Counted from the stretch's first letter, positions 1,415 through 24,722 are shown. The stretch: DNA of 64,000 nt from Escherichia coli (GCF_009931435.1 NZ_CP043414.1); one strand, 5' to 3'. The notes: generated by a model not told the origin, from the letters alone. Translations and numbers: made by a program.

Positions 1415-1416
1415 GT

Positions 1417-2748: not shown

Positions 2749-2752
2749 GACG

Positions 2753-3514: not shown

Positions 3515-3522
3515 GGACGTTT

Positions 3523-6282: not shown

Positions 6283-7022
6283 GCAGGTTGCGCGTTTTCC
6301 GGCAGACAGGATGGTTTATCGCGGGCCTGATGGCGGGCTTACCCGCCAGTGCCGCGCCCGCAGAAACATCGTCAGTGGCCGGTGTGGCGGTAGCTGTCGC
6401 CACAGCGACACCGCCGGATGCGACAGCCACGTTACAGGCCATGCGGTCCTGTCGCCAGGAGACGGCGGCGCTGGAGCGGCTTGACTGCTATGACCGCCTG
6501 CTGGCACCCCTTTCTCCGTCAGGGTTTGACGGGGCGCTGGTCAAAGCCGGTTTTGTGGGCGAGGCCTGGACCCGCGCCACAGAGCAGGAAAAACGCCGCC
6601 AGGGCAACACCACAGAGCTGCTGGTGACGCAGGTGCCGGGAGAACGCCCGACGGTGGTGGTAACCACCCCGGCTATCGGCCATGTTCCGCCTCGCCCGGT
6701 GCTGATGTTCAGCTGTGTGGACAATATCACCCGGATGCAGGTGGCGCTGGTGCACCCTCTGGATGTCCATGATATCGCCGTCACCCTGAATGCCGACAGC
6801 CGGGTATTGCGCAGCCACTGGTTTGTGCGCGAGAACGGCACCCTGCTGGAGTCCAGCCGGGGGCTGTCCGGGATTGATGAAATTAAGCAACTGTTCGGCG
6901 CAAAAACGCTGACGGTGGATACCGGCGCAGATAACGCCGCCGGAAAGCTGACCTTTAACATTGACGGGCTAGCAAGGGCGATTGCCCCCCTGCGCGATGC
7001 CTGCCACTGGGCGGGAGAATAA
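6279..7022 (+). CDS. T6SS-associated secreted/periplasmic protein, VasI-like
   Basis: 247 aa with N-terminal signal peptide; occupies the vasI position between clpV and tssA; ATGA start/stop overlap with clpV. Confidence 0.55.
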   Translation: MSRLRVFRQTGWFIAGLMAGLPASAAPAETSSVAGVAVAVATATPPDATATLQAMRSCRQETAALERLDCYDRLLAPLSPSGFDGALVKAGFVGEAWTRATEQEKRRQGNTTELLVTQVPGERPTVVVTTPAIGHVPPRPVLMFSCVDNITRMQVALVHPLDVHDIAVTLNADSRVLRSHWFVRENGTLLESSRGLSGIDEIKQLFGAKTLTVDTGADNAAGKLTFNIDGLARAIAPLRDACHWAGE

Positions 7023-7026
7023 AAAT

Positions 7027-8442
7027 ATGGCAATGGACTTACGCGATCCGAATGTCTGGATATCGCACCTGCTGGAAAACCTGCCGGAAGAGAAACTGGC
7101 ATCGGCGCTGAAAGATGACAACCCGGACTGGGAGTATATCGACGGCGAAATCGTCAAACTGGGTTCACTGGCCCACAGCCAACTGGATATCCCGGAACTC
7201 CAGCGCCGGGGGCTGGTCATTCTGGCTTCGGAGAGTAAGGATTTTCGTCTGCTGGCACACCTGCTCAGAACCCTGCAACATGCCGGTGATCCACTGCTGG
7301 CACTGCGCCTGCTGGCGCTATACGTGGAACATTACTGGACTGTGGCCGCGCCGCAGAATATGGCGCATAAAAAACGCTTTGCCAGCCAGATCATTAAACG
7401 TTTTGAAACGGGTATTGAAGGCTTTTCACAGAACGCCGCCACCGCGCAGCGCGATGCACTATTAGGTGAACTGGCGAAACTGGCGCAGTGCTGGCAGTCA
7501 CATAACGCCCCGGAACTGGCAGAGGCTACTGATGATCTTTTTGCCCTGTACCAGCGTGCGTTTAATCGTGCGGCACCGGCTCCTGCCCACACTCCGGCGG
7601 CCTCCGGTAGTTCACCACAGACCACCGCCACGTCTGAAAGCGGCGTGACGCAAACCAGTGCTCCGGCTCCACAGATCGCCATCGACAGTCACGACGACAA
7701 AGCCTGGCGCGACACGCTGTTAAAAGTGGCGGCCATTTTATGTGAACGCCAGCCGGACTCGCCGCAGGGCTATCGCCTGCGCCGCCATGCCCTGTGGCAA
7801 TCCATCACCAGTACGCCCCAGGCGGAAAGCGATGGACGCCCCCCACTGGCTGCGGTCTCCGCCGATATGGTGGCAGATTACCATGCTCAGCTCGGTAGTG
7901 CCGATATGGCGCTGTGGCAGCAGGTGGAAAAAAGCGTACTGCTGGCACCCTACTGGCTGGACGGTCACTGCATTTCTGCACAGACGGCGCACCGTCTTGG
8001 CTATACCGCCGTGGCCGATGCCATCCGCGATGAAGTCGTTTCCTTTCTTGGCCGTCTGCCCGCGCTCGCTGATCTTCTGTTTAACGACCACACACCGTTT
8101 GTTTCTGAAAAAACGAAGCAATGGCTTGCAACTCAGCCAGGTAACCAGGCCGCGCCAGTCATACAGGTGAGTAATGAAGATATTCAGGCTGCGCGGTTGT
8201 GTTTTGATGAACAGGGGCTGGAAGCCGCCTTACGGTATCTGGATACGTTGCCCGCCGGTGAACCCCGCGACCAGTTTCACCGGCAGTATTTTGGCGCGCA
8301 GCTTATGGAAGAGGCGGGGCTGGTACAGCTTGCGCAGCAGCAGTACCGGATGTTGTTCAGGATGGGATTGCAGATGATGGTGGCAGACTGGGAGCCGTCC
8401 CTGCTTGAGCAGCTAGAACAAAAATTCACGGCAGAACAATAA
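7027..8442 (+). CDS. tssA: T6SS protein TssA (VasJ-type, ImpA N-terminal domain family)
   Basis: About 471 aa from ATG 7027 (MAMDLRDPNVW); sits at the vasJ position upstream of tssM; N-terminal region resembles the ImpA-N domain. Family assignment is by context and general resemblance. Confidence 0.65.
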   Translation: MAMDLRDPNVWISHLLENLPEEKLASALKDDNPDWEYIDGEIVKLGSLAHSQLDIPELQRRGLVILASESKDFRLLAHLLRTLQHAGDPLLALRLLALYVEHYWTVAAPQNMAHKKRFASQIIKRFETGIEGFSQNAATAQRDALLGELAKLAQCWQSHNAPELAEATDDLFALYQRAFNRAAPAPAHTPAASGSSPQTTATSESGVTQTSAPAPQIAIDSHDDKAWRDTLLKVAAILCERQPDSPQGYRLRRHALWQSITSTPQAESDGRPPLAAVSADMVADYHAQLGSADMALWQQVEKSVLLAPYWLDGHCISAQTAHRLGYTAVADAIRDEVVSFLGRLPALADLLFNDHTPFVSEKTKQWLATQPGNQAAPVIQVSNEDIQAARLCFDEQGLEAALRYLDTLPAGEPRDQFHRQYFGAQLMEEAGLVQLAQQQYRMLFRMGLQMMVADWEPSLLEQLEQKFTAEQ

Positions 8443-8460
8443 AAGAGAACAGGAGTTTTT

Positions 8461-11400
8461 GTGTTCAGATTACCAACACCCCGACTATTCAGCGGACTCA
8501 AATCAGCCCTGCGCCCGGCGATGCCCCGGTTTAAAGTTTCTGCATTCTGGCTGCTGATACTGGCGTGGATTTTCCTGCTGGTATGGATCTGGTGGAAAGG
8601 CCCGGCATGGACGCTGGATGAAGAGCAGTGGCTCAAACCACTGGCGAACCGCTGGCTGGCAACGGCGGCGTGGGGGATTATTGCCCTGGTGTGGCTTACC
8701 GTCCGGGTAATGAAGCGCCTGCAACAGCTTGAAAAAATGCAAAAGCAACAGCGCGAGGAAGCCGTTGATCCGCTCAGTGTGGAACTGAACGCCCAGCAGC
8801 GTTACCTCGACCGCTGGCTGCTGCGCCTGCAACGCCATCTCGACAACCGCCGTTTCCTGTGGCAGTTGCCGTGGTATATGGTCATCGGTCCTGTGGGCAG
8901 TGGCAAAACGACACTGCTGCGCGAGGGGTTTCCGTCAGACATTATTTATGCCCCGGAGGGCGCGCACGGCGCAGAACAACGCCTGTACCTCACGCCCCAT
9001 GTCGGTAAACAGGCGGTGATCTTTGATATCGACGGCACACTCTGCGCTCCCGCTGATGCGGATATCCTGCATCGCCGTCTGTGGGAACATGCCCTCGGCT
9101 GGCTGAAGGAAAAGCGCGCGCGCCAGCCGCTGAACGGGATTATTCTGACACTCGATTTACCCGATCTGCTGACCGCAGACAAACGCCGCCGCGAGCATCT
9201 GTTACAGACGCTGCGCAGCCGCTTACAGGATATACGCCAGCATCTTCATTGCCAGTTACCGGTTTACGTGGTACTGACCCGGCTTGATTTATTGCAGGGT
9301 TTTGCCGCCCTGTTTCAGTCACTGAACAGACAGGATCGCGATGCGATTCTGGGTGTTACGTTCACCCGCCGTGCTCATGAAAATGATGACTGGCGAACAG
9401 AGTTGAATGCTTTCTGGCAGACATGGGCGGATCGAATGAATCTGGCGTTGCCGGATCTGATGGTCACCCAGACTCACACCCGCGCGTCTTTATTTAGTTT
9501 TTCCCGCCAGATGCAGGGAAGCCGTGAACCGCTGATATCACTGCTGGAGGGTCTGCTTGACGGCGAAAATATGAACGTGATGCTGCGTGGTGTCTATCTC
9601 ACCTCTTCGCTTCAGCGTGGACAGATGGATGATATATTCACCCAGTCTGCTGCCCGCCAGTACCGACTGGGCAATAACCCACTGGCGTCCTGGCCTCTGG
9701 TGGACACCGCGCCTTATTTCACCCGCAGCCTGTTCCCGCAGGCATTACTCGCAGAGCCTAATCTGGCAACAGAGAGCCGCGCCTGGCTGATGCGTTCCCG
9801 TCGCCGCCTGACGGTTTTCTCTGCCACAGGCGGCGTGGCGGCACTGCTGCTCATCACCGGCTGGAATCACTATTACAACGGTAACTATCAGTCCGGCATC
9901 ACCGTGCTTAAGCAGGCCAAAGCCTTTATGGACGTGCCGCCTCCGCAGGGGGAAGATGACTTTGGTAACCTACAACTGCCGCTGCTGAACCCGGTACGCG
10001 ATGCCACACTGGCCTATGGCGACTGGGGTGACCGCAGCCGCCTGGCCGATATGGGACTGTACCAGGGGCGACGTATCGGGCCTTATGTGGAACAGACCTA
10101 TCTGCAACTGCTGGAGCAGCGTTACCTGCCCTCGCTGTTTAACGGGCTGGTCAAAGCGATGAACGCCGCACCGCCGGAGAGTGAGGAAAAACTCGCGGTG
10201 CTGCGCGTGATGCGAATGCTGGAGGACAAAAGCGGACGCAACAATGAGGTGGTGAAGCAGTATATGGCAAAACGCTGGAGCGAAAAGTTCCACGGACAGC
10301 GCGATATCCAGACACAACTGATGTCCCATCTTGACTACGCGCTGGCTCATACTGACTGGCATGCAGAGCGTCAGGCGGGCGACGGTGATGCCATCAGCCG
10401 CTGGACGCCATATGACAAGCCTGTTGCGACAGCACAGAAAGAACTGAGCAAACTGCCTGTCTACCAGCGGGTTTACCAGAGCCTGAAAACGCGGGCGCTG
10501 GGCGTTCTTCCTGCTGACCTCAATCTGCGTGACCAGGTAGGGCCAACCTTTGACCAGGTGTTTACATCTGCCGATGATAACAAACTGGTTGTTCCACAGT
10601 TTCTTACCCGTTACGGCCTGCAAAGCTATTTTGTAAAACAGCGCGATGAACTGGTTGAACTGACGGCGATGGATTCCTGGGTACTCAACCTCACCCGCAG
10701 CGTGAAATACAGTGACGCCGACCGCGCGGAAATTCAGCGCCAGTTGACCGAGCAGTATATCAGCGACTACACCGCCACCTGGCGGGCCGGGATGGACAAT
10801 CTCAATATCCGCAATTTTGAGTCCATTGGACAACTGACTGGCACTCTGGAGCAGGTTATCAGCGGCGACCAGCCTTTGCAGCGGGCGCTGACCGTGCTGC
10901 GTGACAACACACAGCCAGGCGTCTTTTCTGAAAAACTCTCTGCCAAAGAGCGGGATGAGGCCCTGGCAGAGCCGGATTACCAGTTACTCACCCGCCTCGG
11001 GCATGAATTCGCCCCGGAAAACAGTACCCTGACAGTACAGAAAGACAAAGAAAGCACGATGCAGGCCGTATACCAGCAGCTCACCGAGTTACACCGCTAC
11101 CTGCTGGCAATCCAGAACGCGCCTGTACCAGGGAGATCGGCGCTGAAAGCCGTGCAGTTAAGGCTTGATCAGAACTGCAGCGATCCAATATTCGCCACCC
11201 GCCAGATGGCAAAAACACTGCCTGCTCCGCTCAACCGCTGGGTAGGCAGGCTGGCTGACCAGGCCTGGCATGTGGTGATGGTGGAAGCCGTTCACTATAT
11301 GGAAGTGGACTGGCGCGACAGCGTGGTGAAACCGTTTAACGAGCAACTGGCAAATAACTATCCGTTTAATCCACGTTCTGCACAGGATGCCTCACTGGAT

Positions 11401-11985
11401 GCCTTCGAACGATTCTTTAAACCGGATGGCGTACTGGATACCTTCTACCAGCAGAACCTGAAACTGTTTATCGACAATGATCTGAGCCTGGAAGACGGCG
11501 ATAACAGCGTCATTATCCGCGAAGATATTATTGCGCAACTGGAAACCGCGCAGAAAATCCGTGACATCTTCTTCAGCAAACAGAACGGTCTGGGAACATC
11601 CTTTGCCGTGGAAACGGTATCGCTTTCCGGCAACAAACGCCGCAGCGTACTGAACCTTGACGGCCAGTTAGTCGATTACAGCCAGGGCCGTAACTATACC
11701 GCCCATCTGGTCTGGCCTAACAATATGCGCGAAGGCAACGAAAGCAAACTGACGCTGGTTGGTGCCAGCGGCGGCGCACCGCGCAGTATCAGCTTCAGCG
11801 GGCCGTGGGCGCAGTTCCGCCTGTTCGGGGCCGGACAACTGACCGGAGTACAGGATGGCAACTTTACCGTGCGCTTTAGCGTGGACGGTGGCGCGATGAC
11901 CTACCGTGTGCATACCGACACCGAGGATAACCCGTTCAGCGGTGGGTTGTTCAGCCAGTTTGGTCTGTCAGACACACTGTACTGA
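8461..11985 (+). CDS. tssM: T6SS membrane-complex protein TssM (IcmF family)
   Basis: 1174 aa; N-terminal transmembrane helices, Walker A NTP-binding motif GPVGSGKTTLL and long periplasmic C-terminal region; GTG start preceded by AGGAG at 8451-8455. Confidence 0.9.
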   Translation: MFRLPTPRLFSGLKSALRPAMPRFKVSAFWLLILAWIFLLVWIWWKGPAWTLDEEQWLKPLANRWLATAAWGIIALVWLTVRVMKRLQQLEKMQKQQREEAVDPLSVELNAQQRYLDRWLLRLQRHLDNRRFLWQLPWYMVIGPVGSGKTTLLREGFPSDIIYAPEGAHGAEQRLYLTPHVGKQAVIFDIDGTLCAPADADILHRRLWEHALGWLKEKRARQPLNGIILTLDLPDLLTADKRRREHLLQTLRSRLQDIRQHLHCQLPVYVVLTRLDLLQGFAALFQSLNRQDRDAILGVTFTRRAHENDDWRTELNAFWQTWADRMNLALPDLMVTQTHTRASLFSFSRQMQGSREPLISLLEGLLDGENMNVMLRGVYLTSSLQRGQMDDIFTQSAARQYRLGNNPLASWPLVDTAPYFTRSLFPQALLAEPNLATESRAWLMRSRRRLTVFSATGGVAALLLITGWNHYYNGNYQSGITVLKQAKAFMDVPPPQGEDDFGNLQLPLLNPVRDATLAYGDWGDRSRLADMGLYQGRRIGPYVEQTYLQLLEQRYLPSLFNGLVKAMNAAPPESEEKLAVLRVMRMLEDKSGRNNEVVKQYMAKRWSEKFHGQRDIQTQLMSHLDYALAHTDWHAERQAGDGDAISRWTPYDKPVATAQKELSKLPVYQRVYQSLKTRALGVLPADLNLRDQVGPTFDQVFTSADDNKLVVPQFLTRYGLQSYFVKQRDELVELTAMDSWVLNLTRSVKYSDADRAEIQRQLTEQYISDYTATWRAGMDNLNIRNFESIGQLTGTLEQVISGDQPLQRALTVLRDNTQPGVFSEKLSAKERDEALAEPDYQLLTRLGHEFAPENSTLTVQKDKESTMQAVYQQLTELHRYLLAIQNAPVPGRSALKAVQLRLDQNCSDPIFATRQMAKTLPAPLNRWVGRLADQAWHVVMVEAVHYMEVDWRDSVVKPFNEQLANNYPFNPRSAQDASLDAFERFFKPDGVLDTFYQQNLKLFIDNDLSLEDGDNSVIIREDIIAQLETAQKIRDIFFSKQNGLGTSFAVETVSLSGNKRRSVLNLDGQLVDYSQGRNYTAHLVWPNNMREGNESKLTLVGASGGAPRSISFSGPWAQFRLFGAGQLTGVQDGNFTVRFSVDGGAMTYRVHTDTEDNPFSGGLFSQFGLSDTLY

Positions 11986-11995
11986 GGAGGCAGGG

Positions 11996-13348
11996 ATGAA
12001 TAGTAACGTACTGACACAAACTATCGTTACCGGCAGTGACCCGCGCGGGCTGCCGGAATTCAGCGCCATCCGCGAGGAAATAAACAAAGCCAGCCACCCG
12101 TCACAGCCTGAGCTGAACTGGAAACTGGTGGAGTCGCTGGCGCTGGCGATTTTTAAAGCTAACGGTGTGGATTTACACACCGCCACCTACTATACGCTTG
12201 CACGGACACGGACACAGGGACTGGCGGGCTTTTGCGAAGGTGCGGAACTGCTGGCGGCAATGGTAAGCCACGACTGGGATAAGTTCTGGCCGCAGGGCGG
12301 CCCGGCGCGTACTGAAATGCTGGACTGGTTTAACTCCCGAACCGGCAATATTCTGCGTCAGCAAATCTCCTTTGCGGAATCCGACCTACCACTGATCTAC
12401 CGCACGGAGCGGGCATTGCAGCTTATCTGCGACAAACTCCAGCAGGTAGAGCTGAAGCGCGTTCCGCGCGTGGAGAATCTGCTCTATTTTATGCAGAACA
12501 CGCGTAAACGGCTTGAACCCCAGCCGAAGAGTAACGCCGAGAACACCTCACAGACCACGGTCAGAACGCTGATTTATGCACCGGAAACAATGGCTTCCTC
12601 CACGCCAGAAGCAGTAGTGCCTCCCCTGCCCGACCTGCCCGAGATGAAAGTGGAAGTGCGCAGTCTGTCAGAAAATCCCCCACAGGCCAGTGTGATGAAG
12701 CAAGGCAGTACGGTAAGAGGGTTTATCGCAGGGATCGTCTGTTCAGTGGCTGTCGCCTCAGCATTGTGGTGGTGGCAGGTCTATCCGGTGCAGCAGCAAC
12801 TGTTACAGGTTAACGACACCGCGCAGGGCGCAGCAACGGTGTGGATGGCCTCACCTGAACTCGAAAACTATGAGCGCAGGTTGCAACAGCTTCTTGGCGT
12901 CTCCCCGGTACAACCGCTGGAAACCGGAATGCAGATGATGCGTGTTGCCGACAGTCGCTGGCCGGAAAGCCTGCAACAGCAACAGGCCTCGACACAATGG
13001 AATGAGGCACTCAAAACCCGCGCACAGAGTAGCCCGCAGTTGCGTGGCTGGTTGCAGACCCGCCAGGACTTACATGCTTTTGCAGATCTCGTGATGCAGC
13101 GCGAGAAAGAGGGACTAACCCTTTCCTATATCAAAAATGTCATCTGGCAGGCGGAGCGGGGACTGGGGCAGGAAACACCCCTGGAATCCCTGCTGACGCA
13201 GTACCAGGATGCCCGTGCACAGAAGCAGAATACAGATGCGCTGGAAAAACAAATTAATGAGCGACTCGAAGGCGTGTTAAGCCGCTGGCTGCTGCTGAAG
13301 AATAACGTCATGGCAGAGGCGGCAACCGGGACCACGACCGGAAAATAA
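11996..13348 (+). CDS. T6SS accessory protein, VasL/TagA-like, membrane-anchored
   Basis: About 450 aa from ATG 11996 with GAGGAGG RBS; one internal hydrophobic helix (FIAGIVCSVAVASALWWW); occupies the vasL position immediately after tssM. Confidence 0.55.
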   Translation: MNSNVLTQTIVTGSDPRGLPEFSAIREEINKASHPSQPELNWKLVESLALAIFKANGVDLHTATYYTLARTRTQGLAGFCEGAELLAAMVSHDWDKFWPQGGPARTEMLDWFNSRTGNILRQQISFAESDLPLIYRTERALQLICDKLQQVELKRVPRVENLLYFMQNTRKRLEPQPKSNAENTSQTTVRTLIYAPETMASSTPEAVVPPLPDLPEMKVEVRSLSENPPQASVMKQGSTVRGFIAGIVCSVAVASALWWWQVYPVQQQLLQVNDTAQGAATVWMASPELENYERRLQQLLGVSPVQPLETGMQMMRVADSRWPESLQQQQASTQWNEALKTRAQSSPQLRGWLQTRQDLHAFADLVMQREKEGLTLSYIKNVIWQAERGLGQETPLESLLTQYQDARAQKQNTDALEKQINERLEGVLSRWLLLKNNVMAEAATGTTTGK

Positions 13349-13371
13349 TTATTTAGTTAAAGGAGATTATC

Positions 13372-13854
13372 ATGGCAAATATGAGTTATTTATCTTTAAG
13401 TGGGGAGACACAAGGGCTGATTTCAGCGGGTTGCTCAACGCTTGACTCTGTCGGAAACAAAGCGCAGTTAGAGCATAAAGATCAGATCATGGTTTATGCG
13501 CTAATGCACTCCATCTCAAGAAGTCAGAATGTCAATCATCATGAACTGGTCATCACCAAGCCTGTTGATAAATCCTCACCGTTGCTGGCAAAAGCACTTA
13601 GTGACAATGAAAAAATGACAGCGTGTGAATTTATACTCTACCGAACCAGTAAAGAGGGCATTAACCAGCCTTACTATAAAATAAATCTGTCAAAAGCCAG
13701 GATATCAAGTATTGATTTTGTCACACCTCATGCTGTTCTGGAAAAAGAACTGGAGCCACAGGAGAGAATTGCCTTTATTTATGAAGATATTTCCTGGGAG
13801 CATACGTTAGCCAGGACGAATGCAATGAGTAAATGGCAGGATCGTGTACAGTAA
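13372..13854 (+). CDS. hcp: T6SS tube protein Hcp (TssD)
   Basis: 160 aa; N-terminus MANMSYLSLSGETQG and overall size match the Hcp family; AAGGAG RBS; lower GC than the upstream core genes. Confidence 0.9.
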   Translation: MANMSYLSLSGETQGLISAGCSTLDSVGNKAQLEHKDQIMVYALMHSISRSQNVNHHELVITKPVDKSSPLLAKALSDNEKMTACEFILYRTSKEGINQPYYKINLSKARISSIDFVTPHAVLEKELEPQERIAFIYEDISWEHTLARTNAMSKWQDRVQ

Positions 13855-13896
13855 CATACTGCAATAACATAATAACTTACTATTACGGAGAGATAA

Positions 13897-14811
13897 ATGG
13901 CTGGTTTAAGGAATAATAACAACACACAGAATGCACAGTGGGCTGATTATGTGGGTGACATTCTTCGGGGGTCTCAGCCGATAAACCAGCTAGTACCTCA
14001 GCACCCTTATCTTAACGACATCCCACTCATTGATGAGTTAAGGCGTCAGAACACTCATCATGTTATTCTTTTGACATTTGATGTTGCAAAAAAAATACTC
14101 AACCCAATAACATCATTTGATTACATTCATTTTATCACTACACATCCTTCAGGTATAAAAGATACACTAGCCTGGTTAGTTAACGCGGGTAAATTAATGA
14201 CTGAGTTTGATGAAAATGGGAAAATTATATTTAACCTTAATACCTTAAAGTATACAAAAGCAAGTTACTTTGAAATACTTGGAGAGAAATATATAAAAAT
14301 CACAACATCCAGCCCCTGGCTTTTAGAAAAGCTCGGTAAATATATTTTCTCTTCACGAGCGCCTCAAGTTCTGGAGCTCGCTATTGGCTGGCGAGGAGCT
14401 TTATCTGAATCAATAAAAGGAGTTAAGTTCTGTATCTGGTTTTCAGTAGCCTGGAGAACCATAGAATTTATTATGAGTTCAGAGCGAGATCTGGTTAATT
14501 TTCTTGGTGATTTTTCAATGGATGTGGCCAAAGCAGTGATTGCAGGCGGTGTTGCAACCGCTATTGGAAGCCTGGCTTCTTTTGCCTGTCTTAGTTTTGG
14601 CCTTCCAGTAATTCTTGTAGGAGGAGCAATTTTACTTACAGGGATAGTGTGTACAGTTGTTTTAAATGAAATCGATGCTCAATACCATTTATCAGAAAAA
14701 TTAAAAGATGCAATTAGAGATGGACTAAAACAGCAACAGGAACTTGATAAATGGAAAAGGGAAAACATGACTCCATTTATGTATGTTCTTAACACCCCCC
14801 CCGTGATATGA
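13897..14811 (+). CDS. Hypothetical protein with C-terminal glycine-rich transmembrane helices; candidate T6SS effector
   Basis: 304-aa ORF 42 nt downstream of hcp with RBS; AT-rich; C-terminal third has 2-3 hydrophobic helices with small-residue motifs (VIAGGVATAIGSLASFACLSF, LPVILVGGAILLTGIVCTVVL). The C-terminal 112 codons from an internal ATG at 14473 appear to match what I recall as the K-12 yafU remnant (from memory, unverified). Confidence 0.6.
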   Translation: MAGLRNNNNTQNAQWADYVGDILRGSQPINQLVPQHPYLNDIPLIDELRRQNTHHVILLTFDVAKKILNPITSFDYIHFITTHPSGIKDTLAWLVNAGKLMTEFDENGKIIFNLNTLKYTKASYFEILGEKYIKITTSSPWLLEKLGKYIFSSRAPQVLELAIGWRGALSESIKGVKFCIWFSVAWRTIEFIMSSERDLVNFLGDFSMDVAKAVIAGGVATAIGSLASFACLSFGLPVILVGGAILLTGIVCTVVLNEIDAQYHLSEKLKDAIRDGLKQQQELDKWKRENMTPFMYVLNTPPVI

Positions 14812-14820
14812 GGATTAACT

Positions 14821-15288
14821 ATGTGTTTACATGTTAAATTGAAAGAGTTTCTTTCGATGTTTTTTATAGCCATGTTATTTTTCCCTGCATTCAATGCTTC
14901 TTTGTTTTTTACCGGAATTAAACCTCTATACTCAATAATAAAAGGCTCCACGGAAATATTTTATGATTGGAGAATGTTGATTCTATTCTTCGGTTTCATA
15001 TCGTTTTCCTTGTTAAATATTCATGTAATTTTACTAACGATAATAAAATCATTCTTAATAAAAAAAACAAAGGTAATCAATTTCGCCACAAACATAACAA
15101 TACAGCTAACTCTTATATTTTTACTAATAGCTATCGTAATAGCACCTTTAATAGCTCCTTTTGTCACAGGATATGTCAATGCTAATTATCACCTCTGCGG
15201 TAATAACACGGGGATTTTCCCAGGAGCAATCTATATTAAAAATGGCATGGAATGTAATAATGATTATATTTCTCACAAGGAAGATTAA
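14821..15288 (+). CDS. Small polytopic inner-membrane protein; candidate immunity protein (possibly the ykfM homologue)
   Basis: 155 aa, extremely AT-rich, at least three predicted transmembrane helices; starts 9 nt after the stop of the 304-aa gene. Position relative to yafT and aspV matches my recollection of K-12 ykfM. Confidence 0.55.
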   Translation: MCLHVKLKEFLSMFFIAMLFFPAFNASLFFTGIKPLYSIIKGSTEIFYDWRMLILFFGFISFSLLNIHVILLTIIKSFLIKKTKVINFATNITIQLTLIFLLIAIVIAPLIAPFVTGYVNANYHLCGNNTGIFPGAIYIKNGMECNNDYISHKED

Positions 15289-15429
15289 GCAGTTAAATAT
15301 TATAAAACAAACAGTTTTTAACTCCGGATTCCATGTCCTTTTTTGCACTGTCTTTGTCAGGAAAAAATTTCTTATGCAAAGAATTTTGTATTATTGCCGC
15401 CAGAAATCCCTGCCGGCAGATATAATTTA

Positions 15430-16215
15430 TTATTGATAGCGGTTAACCAAATCTTTTACCATCGCTTTATAGGTCTTTTGCTTAAGTTGCATGATTTGCT
15501 GCTCTGTCATATCAGTCGTACTGGCTTCATTCTTGCCGGGCAATGGTGGAAGCACTTTATATTCATAATTCATCGGCGACCAGGCAGCCCACTCACCTGT
15601 AGCTACATCCACCAGCGTGAATCGCACCAGATAGCGCAGTGAGATTGTGTTAGTCAGTTTTTCATTTTTATAATCGGACCATACTGTTGATTTCAGCGCA
15701 GAGTCATATTTTCCTGTCTGCAACGTATCATGGTAAACAATAATCGCTTTCTGATGCCCTTTCGCAGCCACAAAACGCAATGCCTGCATCCAGTTCATAT
15801 TTTCAGCACTGGCAACATCCTCGTTCTCATTTTTATCTTTATTTTTGTTACAAGTCAGAGGCTTTTGCCTGTCCGGGATACCAGAGAATGTGGAAACAGT
15901 ATAATATTTTCTCATCTCCTCCTGCATAATGGTTTCCGGTGCGCGACTGCCAGACTGGACAAGTATTACGGGAGAATTGAGAGGCACACGAAACTCATCT
16001 CCTTCAAGCGCAGCCTGAATATCCTCCTCGGATACAGCCAGAGTGGTTTCATTACCGAATAAATCTTTGTCTGTCAGTTGCGGGGGAATGTTTTTATTAA
16101 TATTACTTTGTGTAACCTGAGCTTTTTTCTTTTTTTCATCAATAGAAGATTGAGAGGCACATCCTGCAAGCAGCGAGAATAATACACATATGCAACAAAC
16201 CTTTTTTGAATTCAT
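15430..16215 (-). CDS. yafT: Lipoprotein YafT
   Basis: 261 aa with signal peptide and lipobox (LLAGC); size and location next to aspV correspond to yafT of the E. coli backbone. Confidence 0.65.
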
Positions 16216-16482
16216 AATCGGACACTCCCTCGCCTGTCATAATGATTAGAATATTTAGCACTGATAACGGACTCTAATTATATACCCCACTTAAATAATA
16301 ACAAACAAAATCAACATGAAATATACATTCATTTAATCAATATAAAATTATTCTCTAAAAATATATTTAAGTTGAATGGTTCTATATCATTATTGAATTT
16401 TAATAAATGAGACAACAAGAGAGAGTTACACACTTACGCCAGAGTAAAATCATTGAACAGAGAAATTGCGGGATTTAAATGC

Positions 16483-16514
16483 AAAAAAACCGCAAAATTA
16501 AAAATCTTGCGGTT
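16483..16514 (-). terminator. Rho-independent terminator downstream of aspV
   Basis: On the minus strand: inverted repeat AACCGCAA / TTGCGGTT followed by a T-run (plus-strand A-run at 16484-16489). Confidence 0.5.
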
Positions 16515-16540
16515 CTCTGAACTCATTTTCATGAGTGAAT

Positions 16541-16617
16541 TTGGCGGAACGGACGGGACTCGAACCCGCGACCCCCTGCGTGACAGGCAGGTATTCTAAC
16601 CGACTGAACTACCGCTC
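16541..16617 (-). tRNA. aspV: tRNA-Asp (anticodon GUC)
   Basis: 77-nt exact match in reverse complement to E. coli tRNA-Asp (GGAGCGGTAGTTCAGTCGGTTAGAATACCTGCCTGTCACGCAGGGGGTCGCGGGTTCGAGTCCCGTCCGTTCCGCCA). Confidence 0.95.
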
Positions 16618-16750
16618 CGCGTTGTGTTCCGTTGGGAACGAGGCGAATATTACGGATTGCCTCACCCTTCGTCAATGGTTTTTCTCATCTTTTGAATCGT
16701 TTGCTGCAAAAATCGCCCAAGTCGCTATTTTTAGCGCCTTTTACAGGTAT

Positions 16751-17482
16751 TTATGCCCGCCAGAGGCAGCTTCCGCCCTTTTTCTGCACCAGATCGAGAC
16801 GGGCTTCATGTGCCGCAAGCTCTTCATCTGTCGCAAAAACAACGCGTAACTTACTTGCCTGACGCACAATGCGCTGAATTGTTGTTTCACCTTGTTGCTG
16901 TTGTGTCTCTCCTTCCATCGCAAAAGCCATCGACGTTTGACCACCAGTCATCGCCAGATAAACTTCCGCAAGGATCTGGGCATCGAGTAATGCCCCGTGC
17001 AGCGTTCGTTTACTGTTATCTATTTCGTAGCGGGCACATAACGCATCGAGGCTGTTGCGCTTACCGGGAAACATTTTCCTCGCCACCGCAAGGCTATCGG
17101 TGACCTTACAGAAGGTATTGGTCTTCGGAATATCGCGCTTAAGCAACGAAAACTCGTAGTCCATAAAGCCGATATCGAACGCTGCGTTATGGATCACCAA
17201 CTCAGCGCCGCGAATATAGTCCATGAACTCATCGGCTACCTCGGCAAATGTGGGCTTATCGAGCAAAAACTCATCGGCAATACCATGTACGCCAAAGGCT
17301 TCTGGATCCACCAGCCGATCGGGTTTGAGATAAACGTGAAAGTTATTGCCCGTCAGGCGACGGTTCACCACTTCAACGGCACCAATCTCAATGATCTTGT
17401 GGCCTTCATAGTGCGCACCAATCTGGTTCATACCGGTGGTTTCAGTATCGAGAACGATCTGGCGTGTAATTGCAGTGCTCAT
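16751..17482 (-). CDS. dnaQ: DNA polymerase III epsilon subunit (3'-5' proofreading exonuclease)
   Basis: Translation [20 protein letters not shown]... matches DnaQ over the full length; the ORF-track start at 17491 adds three codons, start taken at 17482. Confidence 0.95.
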
Positions 17483-17545
17483 AGCGGTCATTTATGTCAG
17501 ACTTGTCGTTTTACAGTTGATTCAATTACAGGAAGTCTACCAGAG

Positions 17546-18013
17546 ATGCTTAAACAGGTAGAAATTTTCACCGATGGTTCGTGTCTGGGTAATCCTGGAC
17601 CCGGGGGTTACGGCGCTATTTTACGCTATCGCGGACGCGAGAAAACCTTTAGCGCTGGCTACACCCGCACCACCAACAACCGTATGGAGTTGATGGCCGC
17701 TATTGTCGCGCTGGAGGCGTTAAAAGAACATTGCGAAGTCATTTTGAGTACCGACAGCCAGTATGTCCGCCAGGGTATCACCCAGTGGATCCATAACTGG
17801 AAAAAACGTGGCTGGAAAACAGCAGACAAAAAACCAGTAAAAAATGTCGATCTCTGGCAACGTCTTGATGCTGCGCTGGGGCAGCATCAAATCAAATGGG
17901 AATGGGTTAAAGGCCATGCCGGACACCCGGAAAACGAACGTTGCGATGAACTGGCTCGTGCCGCAGCGATGAATCCCACACTGGAAGATACGGGCTATCA
18001 AGTCGAAGTTTAA
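17546..18013 (+). CDS. rnhA: Ribonuclease HI
   Basis: 155 aa from ATG 17546 ([23 protein letters not shown]...), matching RNase HI; the longer ORF-track frame from 17189 overlaps dnaQ and is rejected. Confidence 0.95.
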
Positions 18014-18732
18014 GCCTGTGGTTTACGACATTGCCGGGTGGCTCCAACCGCCTGGCGAATTCGTGGCTTGTTTTTACTCTGTTTCATCGGATTTAGCGTT
18101 AAAGGAATAGTCCGTTTCCGGGCGACAATAAGTTGTAAGCAACCAAGCGCAGGAATATGCGCATTCAATAGTTTTCCACCGTGTTTGTTCCACGGGAGAA
18201 CGTGGAAACGGCTGGCGTGTAACACTTCAAAATTCAACAAAGAGAGCCAGTCCAGCTGCCGCATCAGAGTAAACATCCGGCTATTATAGGGTGAGGTTTT
18301 TCGCAATACCGGCACAAGTTTGCGTAATCCCATTAAACTGATGGGATTGAAGCCGCTAATGACCAACCAACCATCATCAATCAATACCCGATCGGCTTCA
18401 CGTAATAATCGATGCGGATCGGTGCACCACGGCAATGTATGTGCCAGTAGACAAACATCAACGGATTTATCGGCAAAAGGAAGATGAAGTGGGTCCGCCT
18501 GCACCTGGACAGGCATTCCTTGCGCAGAAACATTCACTTGATGAGAAACCGCGCACGCTTCGCAATTGATTTCTGCGCTTAAATTGCCAATCTTAAGCAG
18601 ATGAAAACCATACATTTTAGTGAACCACGGGTTGAGCTGGCGCTCCAGCGCTTTGCGATAAAGCTCTCCCCAGGGCAAATCGCCCCAGCAATCAGGAGCC
18701 ACGACAGTTTGAGGGACTCTTGCCGGTTTCAT
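18010..18732 (-). CDS. yafS: SAM-dependent methyltransferase YafS
   Basis: Translation [22 protein letters not shown]... consistent with YafS; start taken at the second in-frame ATG (18732); 4-nt overlap with the rnhA stop. Confidence 0.85.
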
Positions 18733-18762
18733 CACAACCTTCCGTTTCACACTGAGAGGTAA

Positions 18763-19521
<759 letters not shown>

Positions 19522-19592
19522 TAAAACTTTCTTGTCATCGGCTCCGTTCGCCGTTATGATCGGTCGTCTTTTAAGCAACTATTGACACACAC

Positions 19593-20951
19593 ATGAAGGC
19601 AAAAGCGATATTACTCGCCTCTGTCCTGCTCGTGGGTTGCCAGAGTACCGGCAACGTTCAACAGCACGCACAGAGCCTTTCTGCAGCTGGTCAAGGGGAA
19701 GCAGCAAAGTTTACAAGTCAGGCACGATGGATGGACGATGGGACGTCTATCGCGCCAGATGGTGACTTGTGGGCTTTCATTGGCGACGAGCTAAAGATGG
19801 GAATTCCGGAAAATGACCGGATTCGCGAACAGAAACAGAAATATTTACGCAATAAGAGCTATCTCCACGATGTAACTTTACGGGCAGAGCCGTATATGTA
19901 CTGGATAGCCGGGCAAGTTAAAAAACGTAACATGCCTATGGAACTGGTACTACTACCCATAGTGGAGAGCGCTTTTGATCCTCACGCGACGTCTGGCGCC
20001 AATGCCGCAGGTATTTGGCAGATCATTCCGAGCACGGGGCGCAATTATGGTTTGAAACAGACCCGCAATTATGACGCGCGTCGCGATGTTGTTGCTTCAA
20101 CGACTGCCGCGCTGAACATGATGCAGCGTCTGAACAAGATGTTTGACGGCGACTGGCTTCTGACCGTAGCGGCTTATAACAGCGGCGAAGGTCGGGTCAT
20201 GAAGGCAATTAAAACGAACAAAGCGCGTGGGAAATCCACGGACTTCTGGTCGTTACCGTTGCCGCAGGAAACGAAGCAGTACGTGCCTAAAATGCTGGCA
20301 TTGAGTGATATTCTCAAAAACAGCAAGCGTTATGGTATACGTCTGCCAACGACTGATGAAAGCCGTGCTCTGGCGCGTGTGCACCTGAGCAGCCCGGTTG
20401 AAATGGCGAAGGTTGCAGATATGGCGGGGATTTCCGTCAGCAAGCTGAAGACATTCAACGCTGGCGTGAAAGGCTCCACGCTGGGCGCAAGTGGCCCGCA
20501 GTACGTGATGGTGCCAAAGAAGCATGCAGATCAACTGCGTGAATCTCTGGCTTCTGGCGAAATTGCTGCCGTACAGTCGACACTGGTTGCCGACAATACG
20601 CCGCTTAACAGCCGTGTTTACACCGTACGCTCTGGCGACACGCTTTCAAGCATCGCTTCACGTCTCGGCGTAAGCACCAAAGATTTGCAGCAGTGGAACA
20701 AACTGCGGGGATCTAAGCTGAAAGCAGGCCAAAGTTTGACGATTGGCGCAGGTAGTAGCGCACAGCGGTTGGCAAACAACAGCGATAGCATTACGTATCG
20801 TGTACGCAAAGGCGATTCGCTTTCAAGCATTGCTAAACGCCACGGCGTGAACATCAAAGATGTGATGCGCTGGAACAGCGACACTGCGAATCTGCAACCA
20901 GGCGATAAGCTGACGTTGTTTGTGAAAAACAACAACATGCCAGATTCCTGA
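19593..20951 (+). CDS. mltD: Membrane-bound lytic murein transglycosylase D
   Basis: 452 aa with lipoprotein signal (LLVGC), transglycosylase core and two C-terminal LysM repeats (YTVRSGDTLSSIA / YRVRKGDSLSSIA). Confidence 0.9.
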   Translation: MKAKAILLASVLLVGCQSTGNVQQHAQSLSAAGQGEAAKFTSQARWMDDGTSIAPDGDLWAFIGDELKMGIPENDRIREQKQKYLRNKSYLHDVTLRAEPYMYWIAGQVKKRNMPMELVLLPIVESAFDPHATSGANAAGIWQIIPSTGRNYGLKQTRNYDARRDVVASTTAALNMMQRLNKMFDGDWLLTVAAYNSGEGRVMKAIKTNKARGKSTDFWSLPLPQETKQYVPKMLALSDILKNSKRYGIRLPTTDESRALARVHLSSPVEMAKVADMAGISVSKLKTFNAGVKGSTLGASGPQYVMVPKKHADQLRESLASGEIAAVQSTLVADNTPLNSRVYTVRSGDTLSSIASRLGVSTKDLQQWNKLRGSKLKAGQSLTIGAGSSAQRLANNSDSITYRVRKGDSLSSIAKRHGVNIKDVMRWNSDTANLQPGDKLTLFVKNNNMPDS

Positions 20952-20964
20952 CAAACCAGATAAT

Positions 20965-20996
20965 AAAAAGGCACCGATTCCCCCGGTGCCTTTTTA
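20965..20996. terminator. Bidirectional rho-independent terminator between convergent mltD and yafE
   Basis: Hairpin GGCACCG-(loop)-CGGTGCC flanked by an A-run upstream and a T-run downstream on the plus strand. Confidence 0.6.
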
Positions 20997-20997
20997 T

Positions 20998-21768
20998 TTA
21001 TGCTGCTTTATGTGCTTCTACCATGATGATATCACTGGTGAAAGAGCCATCATTCTGCAAGGCAAAATACGTTTTCACCTCTGTCGATGCGCTCTGTTGG
21101 TAAACGCGAATAGCGTCTACTAACGTTTCTGGCGTACGCATTCTCGCGACCCATGAAGAAAATTCCAGCGGTAACTTATCTGTAATTAAATTATCAACTA
21201 TCAGATTGGCTTCATTGATTAACGTCAACCACTCACCGCTGGCGTAGTTTCGTACGTGTGAGGTATCGCGTAATGCTTCTGCCGTCTGTAACCAGATGTC
21301 GCGCACTGGGTGACCCGGAGACATTACGTCCATCACAATCAGCTTACCGCCAGGTTTCAATATCCGATTCACTTCACGCAGTGCTGCACCAACATCATGC
21401 CAGTGATGGGCAGAATAACGGCTGATAACAATATCAAATGCGTTATCGGCAAATGGCAGACTTTCGGCATAACCCTGGCGGGTGGTGATATTTTTCAGTT
21501 GCCGGGCTTCAGCAGCTTGTGCCACGACATCCAGCATTTGGGCAGATAAGTCATACGCCACCACCGCGCTAACGTTCTGCGCAGCGACAAAGCTGGCATG
21601 CCCTGCTCCGCAGCCCATATCAAGTACACTTGCATCAGGATAATCAGCCAGACGCACCGCCAGGCGCTGTAAATCTCGCCCGGATGCATGTACGGTACTG
21701 GTTAAATACTCACTGGCCTGCGAGCTAAACTGCTTTTCTACGTGGTCATGGTGGGATTGTGTTGTCAT
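20998..21768 (-). CDS. yafE: SAM-dependent methyltransferase YafE
   Basis: 256-aa ORF with methyltransferase motif LDMGCGAGH; position between mltD and yafD; exact start uncertain. Confidence 0.8.
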   Translation of the reverse strand: MTTQSHHDHVEKQFSSQASEYLTSTVHASGRDLQRLAVRLADYPDASVLDMGCGAGHASFVAAQNVSAVVAYDLSAQMLDVVAQAAEARQLKNITTRQGYAESLPFADNAFDIVISRYSAHHWHDVGAALREVNRILKPGGKLIVMDVMSPGHPVRDIWLQTAEALRDTSHVRNYASGEWLTLINEANLIVDNLITDKLPLEFSSWVARMRTPETLVDAIRVYQQSASTEVKTYFALQNDGSFTSDIIMVEAHKAA

Positions 21769-21844
21769 TGCGCTGTCCTTTTGTTATTTGATTAAAAAGG
21801 GCAGCGCCAAACGTTGGTCTGCCCTGTGGCAGACCTGACATACC

Positions 21845-22696
<852 letters not shown>

Positions 22697-22885
22697 CTAC
22701 TGTTATAGGGATTTTAGCTCACTCTTTCAACGAGCAATTGTATATTGTTATGTAAGCAAGTGCTTACACCGGTCAGAAATTTGCTCATTATTGAGAACAT
22801 TAAATCGGATGACATATCACGCATCCTGATGGTTTAATGACAAATAAATTCAAAATATCTCATCTATTTTGCAACAGGAGCAAAA

Positions 22886-23800
22886 ATGAAAGCCACGTCG
22901 GAAGAACTCGCCATTTTTGTTTCGGTCGTCGAAAGCGGCAGCTTTAGCCGGGCAGCGGAACAATTAGGGCAAGCAAACTCAGCGGTAAGCCGGGCGGTGA
23001 AAAAGCTGGAGATGAAACTTGGCGTTAGCCTGCTTAATCGGACCACGCGGCAACTTAGCCTGACAGAAGAAGGCGAGCGTTATTTTCGCCGCGTACAGTC
23101 AATTTTGCAGGAGATGGCAGCGGCAGAATCAGAAATTATGGAGACGCGTAATACACCGCGTGGACTGTTACGGATCGATGCCGCAACTCCAGTGGTGCTG
23201 CACTTTCTGATGCCGTTAATTAAGCCTTTCCGTGAACGCTATCCGGAAGTTACTTTATCGCTAGTCTCCTCCGAAACGATTATTAATTTGATCGAAAGAA
23301 AAGTGGATGTCGCGATACGCGCTGGTACGTTAACGGATTCCAGCTTACGTGCCAGGCCATTGTTTAACAGTTATCGAAAAATTATCGCCTCCCCTGATTA
23401 TATTGCCCGCTACGGCAAGCCAGAAACTATTGACGATTTAAAGCAACATGTTTGCCTGGGATTCACTGAACCCGCTTCCCTCAATACCTGGCCGATAGCC
23501 TGTAGTGATGGACAATTACATGAGGTAAAGTACGGTTTGTCATCCAATAGTGGGGAAACACTGAAACAGCTTTGCCTGAGTGGCAACGGGATTGCGTGTT
23601 TGTCCGACTATATGATCGACAGAGAAATCGCTCGCGGAGAATTGGTGGAGTTAATGGCAGACAAAGTGTTGCCAGTGGAAATGCCATTCAGTGCAGTCTA
23701 TTACAGCGACCGTGCGGTAAGTACGCGCATCCGGGCTTTTATCGATTTCCTTAGCGAGCATGTAAAAACAGCTCCCAGAGGAGCTGTCAGAGAGGCTTAA
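22886..23800 (+). CDS. yafC: LysR-family transcriptional regulator YafC
   Basis: 304 aa with N-terminal helix-turn-helix typical of LysR regulators ([23 protein letters not shown]). Confidence 0.85.
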
Positions 23801-24600
23801 TCCCATTCAGGAGCCAGACCTTCCGGGCTAACCAGGCGGTCGTTGCAATCCAGTGCGGCGATCGCTTTTTTATCTTCGGCATCAAGCTGTAAATTTTGTG
23901 CCTTAAGATTACTCTCCAGGTTTTCACGTCTAGTAGAAGAAGGAATTACCGAGTAACCTTCCCCCATAGCCCACGCCAGAATCACTTGTGCCGGAGTCGC
24001 ATTGTGTTTAGCTGCGATACGAGCAATAACCTCATTTTTCAGTGCCTTACCATAAGCCAGCGTCATATAGGAAGTAATATGGATGCCGTGCTGTTTAGCC
24101 CAATCAACCACTTTACGGTTTTGCAGATAAGGAGAGAGTTCAATCTGGTTAGTAGCGATGTTTTCAGCGCCAACAGCAGCAATCGCTTTTTCCATCAATG
24201 GGATCGTGAAGTTGGAAATACCGATCTCACGCGTCAGACCTTGTTTTTTCGCTTCCAGCAGCGCCTGCATAAACTCTTCAACAGAGACTTCATCGTTTGG
24301 TGACGGCCAGTGGATTAGCGTCAGATCAACATAATCGGTACGCAATTTTTGCAGGCTCTCTTTCAGACTTGGGGTCAATTTATCTTTGCTGAGATTTTCA
24401 ATCCAGATTTTAGTGGTGATGTAGAGTTCATTACGTGGCACGCCACTTTCTGCAATCGCCTGACCTACTGCGGCTTCGTTATCATAGATTTGTGCGGTAT
24501 CAATTGCGCGATAACCAAGTTCAAGCGCCGTTTTCACAGATGAAATAACAACGTCGTCTTTCAGACGAAAAGTACCTAAACCAAATGCAGGGATAGCCAT
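23797..24600 (-). CDS. dkgB: 2,5-diketo-D-gluconate reductase B (aldo-keto reductase)
   Basis: 267 aa, [21 protein letters not shown]...; aldo-keto reductase family; stop codon overlaps the yafC stop (shared TTAA). Confidence 0.9.
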
Positions 24601-24722
24601 AATATGCCTCTTTTAATGCTATGTTCGTTAACTGAGATGATTATGGACTTTAGACTGTTGCGGAAAAAGGGCATAAAATGCAGAGGATTTTTGCAATTAT
24701 GGCAACAATAAACATACAGACG

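Follow-up and report, generated by a model that had tools for sequence, protein, structure and literature searches.

Why does a type VI secretion system (T6SS) operon that is richer in GC (guanine plus cytosine) than the chromosome around it end, beside a tRNA gene, in DNA that is far poorer in GC? The question is raised by a stretch of Escherichia coli DNA (GCF_009931435.1, NZ_CP043414.1; 64,000 nt, one strand, hereafter the window), in which a T6SS core operon (1..13348, + strand) is followed by an AT-rich block (13349-16541) that holds hcp, two membrane-protein genes (tme and ykfM), yafT and the spacer between yafT and the tRNA gene aspV. An original prediction, made before any database search, had read this layout as a compositional mosaic and had proposed at least two acquisition events, namely a core apparatus of foreign high-GC origin and a separately exchanged effector module. 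We favor, with good confidence, a three-layer organization: positions 1-16541 would be the aspV-proximal end of an aspV-linked E. coli T6SS island, in which an old GC-rich apparatus is followed by an exchanged AT-rich hcp-tme-ykfM cassette and, by the tRNA gene, by the terminal gene yafT.

Composition and genes of the AT-rich block

In 500-bp sliding windows, the GC content lies at 0.52-0.65 across 1-13250, drops to 0.42 in 13251-13750, lies between 0.31 and 0.45 up to 16750 and, past aspV, has recovered to about 0.50 from 16501 on. The step at about 13.3 kb is sharp, and the drop begins at approximately 13306-13350, ahead of hcp and at the recombination breakpoint described below. Taken by segment, the GC content is 0.573 for the core (1-13348), 0.368 for the block, 0.482 and 0.517 for the backbone (16619-24700 and 30300-64000, respectively) and 0.518 for the whole window; no piece of the block's length (3193 bp) falls below 0.470 anywhere in 16619-64000. 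The mean GC content at third codon positions (GC3) is 0.658 (standard deviation 0.036, range 0.61-0.72) in nine core genes, 0.530 (standard deviation 0.052) in 40 backbone genes and 0.356 in the four block genes (hcp 0.41, tme 0.30, ykfM 0.30, yafT 0.41), with Mann-Whitney p values of 2e-6 for core above backbone, 3e-5 for block below backbone and 1.4e-3 for block below core. On a codon index referenced to the window's own backbone genes, z scores are -1.9 for hcp, -2.7 for tme, -3.5 for ykfM and -1.2 for yafT, and rare codons (AGA, AGG, ATA, CTA, CGA, and GGA) number 8.0 per 100 in the block versus 1.9 in the core and likewise in the backbone. Runs of at least 6 A/T nt occur 26 times per kb in the block versus 6-9 times in core and backbone (3-4.5-fold), TpA steps are about twice as frequent as in core or backbone, and the intergenic DNA of the block has a GC content of 0.29-0.37. 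The tetranucleotide signatures of block and backbone correlate at r = 0.40, and none of 200 size-matched backbone pieces gave a value under 0.42 (mean 0.55, standard deviation 0.05). The segments thus differ significantly, and the mosaic that had been sketched by eye, including the A/T runs and rare codons of its AT-rich stretch, is borne out. One detail of it was wrong: hcp had been described as intermediate, whereas its GC (0.412) and GC3 (0.410) are near those of yafT (GC 0.419) and below the backbone, and hcp is therefore part of the AT-rich block.

The first gene of the block, hcp (13372..13854, + strand), encodes a 160-aa protein that matches TIGR03344 with 205.4 bits (cut-off 58.9) and Hcp structures in the PDB with E values down to 3e-22. 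Since E. coli E24377A encodes a further Hcp beside vgrG (172 aa, GC 0.54, 27% identical to the window's terminal Hcp), the terminal Hcp is an extra one, that is, a second, cassette-borne Hcp. From its adjacency to the toxin gene and from their co-swapping, it is presumed to be the dedicated carrier of that toxin.

The next gene, tme (13897..14811, + strand), is the full-length form of the K-12 pseudogene yafU. Its 304-aa product is 100% identical to WP_032183276.1, an E. coli protein listed as a Tme-family, membrane-disrupting T6SS effector by Fridman et al. (2020, Nat Commun 11:1085; Supplementary Data 5). That entry places the Tme domain in residues 122-277 (E 5.3e-38; approximately 14260-14727 here), an Hcp at a distance of 42 bp upstream and, 9 bp downstream, a 155-aa protein for which three transmembrane helices (TMHs) are given. 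The assignment of this exact protein is therefore already published. The family motif, a near-invariant DxxK followed by a TMH that is flanked by another Asp (Fridman et al. 2020), can be read in the window as D209-V-A-K212 (14521-14532), hydrophobic residues 213-256 and D260. The linkage to a T6SS is also present, as hcp ends 42 bp upstream of tme and is itself preceded by the full core operon. Tme homologs are rare (19 clusters at 90% identity among 5.8 billion proteins) and come from E. coli, Salmonella, Rahnella and a few metagenomes; the relatives in Salmonella and Rahnella each adjoin hcp, and a DUF1240 membrane-protein gene comes after them. Plasmids of Pantoea and Lelliottia encode more distant relatives that carry a PAAR-domain annotation, which agrees with the fusions described for the family. 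A plasmid search returned mostly mis-filed chromosomes and nothing that would place the window's cassette on mobilisable plasmids.

Nine bp past the end of tme starts ykfM (14821..15288, + strand), whose 155-aa product is, by homology and position, a presumed Tmi immunity protein with three TMHs; these are listed for WP_032183275.1 (155 aa), the product in the nearest genome, whose ykfM is 99.8% identical to the window's at the DNA level. YkfM is 49% identical (BLASTP E 2e-44) to the Salmonella DUF1240 protein at the equivalent position and matches its Pseudocitrobacter counterpart weakly (23%, E 7e-5). A direct Pfam scan of YkfM gave no match, DUF1240 (PF06836) included, and 'DUF1240-like' seems the best term for the protein. 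DUF1240 is the main Tmi family, whose genes come right after tme and code for 3-6 TMHs, and DUF1240 and DUF1240-like proteins have been proposed as the immunity proteins of Tme effectors (Fridman et al. 2020). In Vibrio, Tme1 and Tme2 are toxic only in the periplasm, where they dissipate the membrane potential and raise permeability without lysis, and each is neutralized by its cognate Tmi only (Fridman et al. 2020). Because of this homology to Tme/Tmi, whose Vibrio members act in the periplasm, we read tme-ykfM as a probable effector-immunity pair acting on the inner membrane, which gives an identity to two membrane-protein genes that the original prediction had left unnamed. Tme would travel on or inside the Hcp of its own cassette and be shot by the T6SS into the periplasm of a neighboring cell, where its C-terminal DxxK-TMH-D domain would insert into the inner membrane and the membrane potential would be lost, while YkfM in the inner membrane of the producer would neutralize it.

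The pair shares with V. parahaemolyticus Tme1/Tmi1 and Tme2/Tmi2 (Fridman et al. 2020) the C-terminal DxxK, TMH and Asp, the multi-TMH DUF1240-like gene directly downstream and the T6SS gene hcp directly upstream. It differs in the N-terminal 120 residues of Tme, which are unrelated to known loading domains, and in that Tme is paired with a dedicated Hcp instead of being fused to VgrG, PAAR or MIX. Pseudomonas aeruginosa reportedly has small, Hcp1-dependent cargo effectors, Tse1-4, and Tse4/Tsi4 is said to be pore-forming. These Hcp-dependent effectors and tme have in common a place beside hcp, membrane activity (predicted for Tme) with glycine-rich hydrophobic helices, and an inner-membrane immunity protein (presumed for YkfM). 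However, no sequence relationship is detectable between them, a Tme of 304 aa is large for the Hcp lumen, and binding to Hcp is, for Tme, a prediction.

Cassette exchange and island decay

The extent of the cassette was established by comparison with 5426 complete E. coli genomes, a set in which counts are biased by sampling (O157, K-12 derivatives). All alleles align through ...CTGCTGCTGAAGAATAA, 14 codons before the vasL stop, and alignment resumes from ...ATTCATAATTCA, within the 3' end of yafT. The megablast matches of O157:H7 and of strain 2013C-4282 agree with these points, breaking off after 13305 and starting again within yafT at about 15561. These discrete breakpoints in vasL and yafT put the exchanged unit, to all appearances, at about 13306-15560 (~2.25 kb, + strand), with the last ~14 codons of vasL, hcp, tme, ykfM, the intergenic region and the 3' ~130 bp of yafT as its contents. 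To the left of it, the core is 95.0% identical to O157:H7 and 98.4% identical to 2013C-4282, the best core match among the matches listed. To the right of 13305, both strains carry a different terminal hcp (hcpB; GC 0.33, 54% protein identity), followed by a short disrupted open reading frame (ORF), a 198-aa protein and a DUF1311/LprI-like protein. This O157-type cassette is found in 364 genomes, beyond O157 alone, and the full hcp-tme-ykfM-yafT arrangement of the window in 2566. A third arrangement (580 genomes) is that of B2 strains such as UTI89, in which the core is diverged (~76-80% identity) and a terminal hcp with a GC content of 0.51 (GC3 0.61), versus 0.41 in the window, comes without cargo. 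Terminal Hcps are 54-57% identical between cassette types, the window's being 54-56% identical to those of O157 and UTI89.

The separate exchange of an effector module, as proposed in the original prediction, thus holds, with different, unalignable cassettes on cores that are 95-98.4% identical, but the unit is not the one that was drawn: it takes in hcp and leaves out most of yafT and the spacer. Cassettes were likely replaced whole, hcp together with its cargo, through homologous recombination between conserved flanks, the 3' part of vasL on one side and yafT on the other, and the outcome would be one apparatus with different weapons in different strains. A repeat search of 13000-16800 gave short chance matches only and no att-like repeats around the cassette. 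Outside E. coli, Rahnella harbors a free-standing hcp/tme/DUF1240 islet with a GC content of 0.39 within flanks of 0.53-0.57. In the O157:H7 slot (locus L006, 5028-6377), which holds the 198-aa and DUF1311/LprI-like proteins, the disrupted upstream ORF has an intact form that is annotated 'peptidoglycan-binding' in one strain; the alternative cargo of O157 and of Enterobacter is probably made up of cell-wall-targeting effector-immunity pairs.

A comparable exchange is known from V. cholerae, in which effector-immunity modules are swapped on the T6SS (Unterweger 2014; Kirchberger 2017; Thomas 2017), as summarized in a 2019 review of the E. coli T6SS (PMC6730261) that notes the lack of any such study in E. 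coli at that date. Going by that summary, the two systems have in common structural genes that are more than 95% conserved, conserved flanks, unalignable modules in one slot with a GC content below that of the structural genes, and orphan immunity genes that are kept. By the same account they differ in the size of the GC drop (~20 points here versus 6-13), in the inclusion of the carrier Hcp in the unit swapped here, and in the right flank, which here is the lipoprotein gene yafT by a tRNA gene. E. coli would therefore diversify its T6SS arsenal as V. cholerae does, by swapping low-GC cassettes on a conserved apparatus; the pattern is well known, the system is not of a new kind, and current concepts are unchanged. 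What is new is the explicit definition of the E. coli cassette boundaries and the place of hcp within the swapped unit.

The island has also been lost to different extents, insertion sequence (IS) elements having deleted it from the left. NT1N28 (IS1 plus a full-length ISAs1 element) has kept an hcp stub, tme, ykfM and yafT; K-12 (ISAs1 remnant) has kept the last 39% of tme, annotated yafU, with ykfM and yafT; another isolate (IS1 plus ISAs1 remnant) has only ykfM and yafT, and others yafT alone. In K-12, the apparatus was lost via IS elements, which left a tme fragment (yafU'), an orphan ykfM and yafT. Across the genome set, yafT with the spacer is present in 4322 genomes, including K-12, which is without a T6SS, ykfM in 2997 and the 5' half of tme in 2573; about 424 genomes therefore hold the immunity gene without the toxin, a count inflated by laboratory K-12 derivatives. 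In our reading, which is also new, yafU of K-12 would be a toxin stub and ykfM an orphan immunity gene. The literature search on ykfM, yafU and yafT found no paper tying these genes to a T6SS. A K-12 ykfM::Tn5 mutant is reported to be more sensitive to killing by nalidixic acid and mitomycin C and less sensitive to killing by sodium dodecyl sulfate (PMC2824699), and these stress phenotypes suggest that ykfM is expressed in K-12.

The island border and competing explanations

The last gene of the island, yafT (15430..16215, - strand), encodes a 261-aa lipoprotein (Pfam PF25851 in the precomputed annotation) and is convergent with the T6SS operon. YafT homologs are 65-82% identical throughout Enterobacteriaceae, and in Salmonella, Hafnia, Lelliottia, Enterobacter, Buttiauxella and Pseudocitrobacter a convergent yafT again closes the hcp/vasL side of a T6SS of this type. 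It lies beside tRNA-Asp in Salmonella, Hafnia and Pseudocitrobacter and beside tRNA-Phe in Lelliottia and Enterobacter, and no tRNA occurs within the locus examined in Buttiauxella. The hcp-yafT slot is empty in Lelliottia and holds a glucosaminidase and small ORFs in Enterobacter cloacae (locus L016, 7125-8326), an unrelated pair of 305 and 167 aa in Buttiauxella and a tandem tme-tmi-tme'-tmi array in Salmonella; the cargo genes of the other genera have a GC content of 0.26-0.41 versus 0.54-0.60 in their cores. We conclude that yafT is neither cargo nor backbone but the conserved gene with which this island family ends, and that it provides the homology arm on the right; its recognition as a border gene at different tRNAs is a further addition of this analysis. 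In the window, the 3' end of aspV (16542) faces yafT and the composition beyond it deviates from the backbone, as expected of a tRNA-linked island; the interval from aspV to the T6SS genes encodes no integrase, aspU is the one other place with the 3' sequence of the tRNA, and the far end of the island lies beyond the window.

Several loci show how the slot varies. In Salmonella enterica (locus L005, 10001-13010), tme, a DUF1240 gene, a 169-aa ORF whose first ~40 residues are as in Tme and the remainder different, and a second DUF1240 gene lie between hcp and yafT; the array looks like a displaced or orphan toxin-immunity array of the kind known from Rhs and contact-dependent inhibition (CDI) loci. 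In Pseudocitrobacter faecalis (locus L018, 6980-10512), a Tme homolog (37%) and a DUF1240 gene lie between tssM and hcp-vasL, so that the position of the cargo within the island varies across genera. In E. fergusonii and C. amalonaticus, yafT is away from any T6SS; the C. amalonaticus gene has a GC content of 0.52, and the protein therefore does not dictate the low GC of yafT.

The apparatus, tagH to vasL, would be an old layer, a long-standing Enterobacteriaceae resident with a signature matched to its host. The original prediction had given it a foreign high-GC origin, and this is weakly supported: GC and GC3 are higher than in the backbone, yet the codon preference (z within +/-1) and tetranucleotide usage (r = 0.57) of the core are indistinguishable from it. 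At aspV, the genes of a Salmonella enterica genome follow one another as they do here, with a nucleotide identity to the window of 73-80% in the core and 78-85% in most flanking housekeeping genes, and the GC content of the core is 0.54-0.60 in every genus examined. Because of the backbone-like codon and tetranucleotide usage and of the same cluster, at near-backbone divergence, at the Salmonella aspV, the core looks like an old, family-wide Enterobacteriaceae island, and we reject a recent high-GC import. Of the two or more acquisition events first proposed, the separate arrival of the cargo stands, a foreign core has weak support, and the AT-rich hcp/yafT ends are partly old, as in Lelliottia.

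It could be that the whole island came once, its composition uneven from the start, and that local mutation bias, selection favoring H-NS control or relaxed selection, rather than a separate origin, lies behind its AT-rich end. In Lelliottia, Hafnia, Buttiauxella and Pseudocitrobacter, cargo-free loci included, the terminal hcp/yafT is indeed likewise richer in AT than the GC-rich core before it, and Salmonella has this layout at aspV too. However, unalignable cassettes in one slot, with discrete breakpoints and cores that are 95-98% identical, refute a single acquisition for the cargo; the terminal Hcps are only 54-57% identical between cassette types, the GC-rich terminal hcp genes of UTI89 and Enterobacter (GC3 0.60-0.61) indicate that low GC is not intrinsic to the position, and the AT-rich hcp/tme/tmi islet of Rahnella is free-standing. 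We therefore consider a single acquisition improbable.

A second possibility is that the block is old E. coli backbone at aspV, with yafT, ykfM and yafU as native genes and the T6SS inserted to their left. Its attraction is that yafT and the spacer are present in most of the genomes, T6SS-less K-12 among them, and that all three genes have K-12 names. Yet K-12 yafU is the 3' 39% of tme, cut by ISAs1, and other strains provide a graded series of IS-mediated deletions; this end of the T6SS has yafT beside it also in Lelliottia and Enterobacter, where the neighboring tRNA is tRNA-Phe, and in Buttiauxella, where the site is a different one; and tme and ykfM homologs beside hcp elsewhere contradict a native-backbone origin, which makes this explanation very hard to sustain. 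Hardly credible at all, and rejected here, is the idea that low GC is a by-product of membrane-protein composition (Ile, Phe, Leu, Lys, and Asn codons), for although the GC contents of the first and second codon positions of ykfM (0.31 and 0.28) are typical of hydrophobic proteins rich in FLINKY residues, third positions are equally low in the block (0.30-0.41), soluble Hcp and the lipoprotein YafT are low too, GC-rich homologs exist (hcp of UTI89 and Enterobacter, GC3 0.60-0.61; yafT of C. amalonaticus), and so does AT-rich intergenic DNA (0.29-0.37).

Some observations weigh against the three-layer organization with an exchanged cassette. The terminal hcp and yafT of Lelliottia are AT-richer than the core although no cargo is present, so that the mosaic is in part a long-standing trait of the island rather than a sign of separate acquisition. 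The Rahnella Hcp that neighbors a Tme is closer to the O157 (65%) and UTI89 (63%) types than to the window's Hcp (57%); Hcp type and cargo type are therefore not strictly coupled. Tme gave no match in Pfam, NCBIfam or PADLOC and no sequence match in the PDB, and its family assignment stands on the position-specific scoring matrix of one paper plus the motif. Scans of YkfM and YafT against Pfam, NCBIfam and PADLOC were likewise without a significant match, and YafT has no PDB sequence match. The sampling bias of the genome counts belongs here as well, as does the H-NS motif count given below.

Building on the three-layer organization, we put forward, tentatively and with some doubt, that the hcp-[cargo]-yafT junction is a dedicated, family-wide cargo slot and that ykfM is a functional orphan immunity gene. 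Across Enterobacteriaceae, yafT and the vasL 3' end may then be fixed homology arms, and YafT, a PelC/LptE-like outer-membrane lipoprotein, may be a functional T6SS accessory. The ykfM of K-12 and of ~8% of complete genomes may shield T6SS-less strains from Tme-armed E. coli, and K-12 prey strains used in competition assays may be immune to the Tme toxin. Apart from this proposal, the three-layer organization gives roles to three long-unexplained K-12 genes, yafU as a fragment of a toxin gene, ykfM as its presumed immunity gene and yafT as an island border.

Probable silencing and neighboring features

The AT-rich end is the kind of DNA that would be coated and silenced by H-NS-type nucleoid proteins, as the original prediction had pointed out. 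In K-12, the yafT locus lies within a transcriptionally silent extended protein occupancy domain (tsEPOD), in which an inserted lac-promoter reporter is silenced, and replacing the yafT tsEPOD relieved this silencing (Bryant et al. 2014). The same locus was found to be a site of low transcriptional propensity, such sites being linked to low GC and H-NS binding (Scholz et al. 2022). In enterohaemorrhagic E. coli (EHEC), the aspV T6SS cluster is near-silent, with an average of 5.7 reads per kilobase per million mapped reads where the genome-wide figure is 198, and deletion of hns derepresses it (Wan et al. 2017), so that H-NS control of the homologous cluster is already on record. Set against this, the window's block shows no enrichment of the 10-mer high-affinity H-NS motif (1.25 per kb versus 1.63 per kb in the backbone). 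The claim of an H-NS target thus agrees with the AT-richness and with published silencing and derepression at homologous loci, but not with the motif count, and on the strength of those loci H-NS silencing of the AT-rich end is a reasonable expectation for the window's strain. The published loci (the EHEC aspV cluster, K-12 yafT and the Salmonella pathogenicity island 6 T6SS of Brunet et al. 2015) are likewise AT-rich and silent; they differ in cassette type and strain, and in that work the nucleoid protein at yafT was left unresolved. The yafT locus, a model site of silent chromatin, is itself the stump of a horizontally exchanged weapon cassette.

Between yafT and aspV lies a very AT-rich, hypervariable spacer (16216..16486), inside which a scan for promoter-like sites placed a likely yafT promoter (TTGTTA-16-TATAAT, 16304-16277, - strand), in a scan whose site count was not above the shuffled expectation. 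Over 16216-16541, the spacer has two allelic forms, being ~79% identical to E24377A and UTI89 and 93-98% identical to O157, K-12 and 2013C-4282, and the distribution of the alleles does not follow cassette type. Just downstream of aspV, a double hairpin followed by a U-run (16487..16536, - strand; folding energy -23 kcal/mol, z -5.0) is most likely the aspV terminator and the end of the backbone transcription unit; it was seen in a manual fold, and a simple terminator scan found none in the region. The tRNA-Asp(GTC) gene aspV itself (16542..16618, - strand; ARAGORN, Rfam) has its 3' end facing the island and is 100% conserved across the compared E. coli genomes; Rfam gave nothing besides the tRNA.

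The core operon was assigned by NCBIfam matches far above the curated cut-offs, in agreement with the annotation of the nearest genome. All on the + strand, its genes are tagH (6-893, truncated by the window start), tssJ (890-1414), tssK (1417-2748), tssL (2753-3514), tssH/clpV (~3529-6282), vasI (6279-7022), tssA (~7027-8442), tssM (~8551-11985) and the VasL/TagA-like gene vasL (~11996-13348). The identity to E24377A dips in tssA (7027-8442; 88.9%, with 94-98% in the neighboring core genes), a sign that the T6SS core is itself mosaic through recombination.

To the right of aspV (16751..24600), the annotation of homologous regions identifies the E. coli backbone genes dnaQ, rnhA, yafS, gloB, mltD, yafE, yafD, yafC and dkgB. 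Over 16619-24700, the window is 97.5-98.0% identical to 5423 of the 5426 genomes and 99.8% identical to one, 2020CK-00188; the window therefore comes from a lineage that is seldom sequenced. In 2020CK-00188, tagH is interrupted by an Rhs gene and tssM is frameshifted. The housekeeping gene gloB (18766-19521) is markedly AT-rich (GC 0.40, GC3 0.35), as it is in O157 and UTI89 (0.40) and in Salmonella (0.42), and despite its low GC its identity across E. coli is 98-99.6%. A second dip in GC, at about 19.0-19.7 kb, is due to gloB and unrelated to the island.

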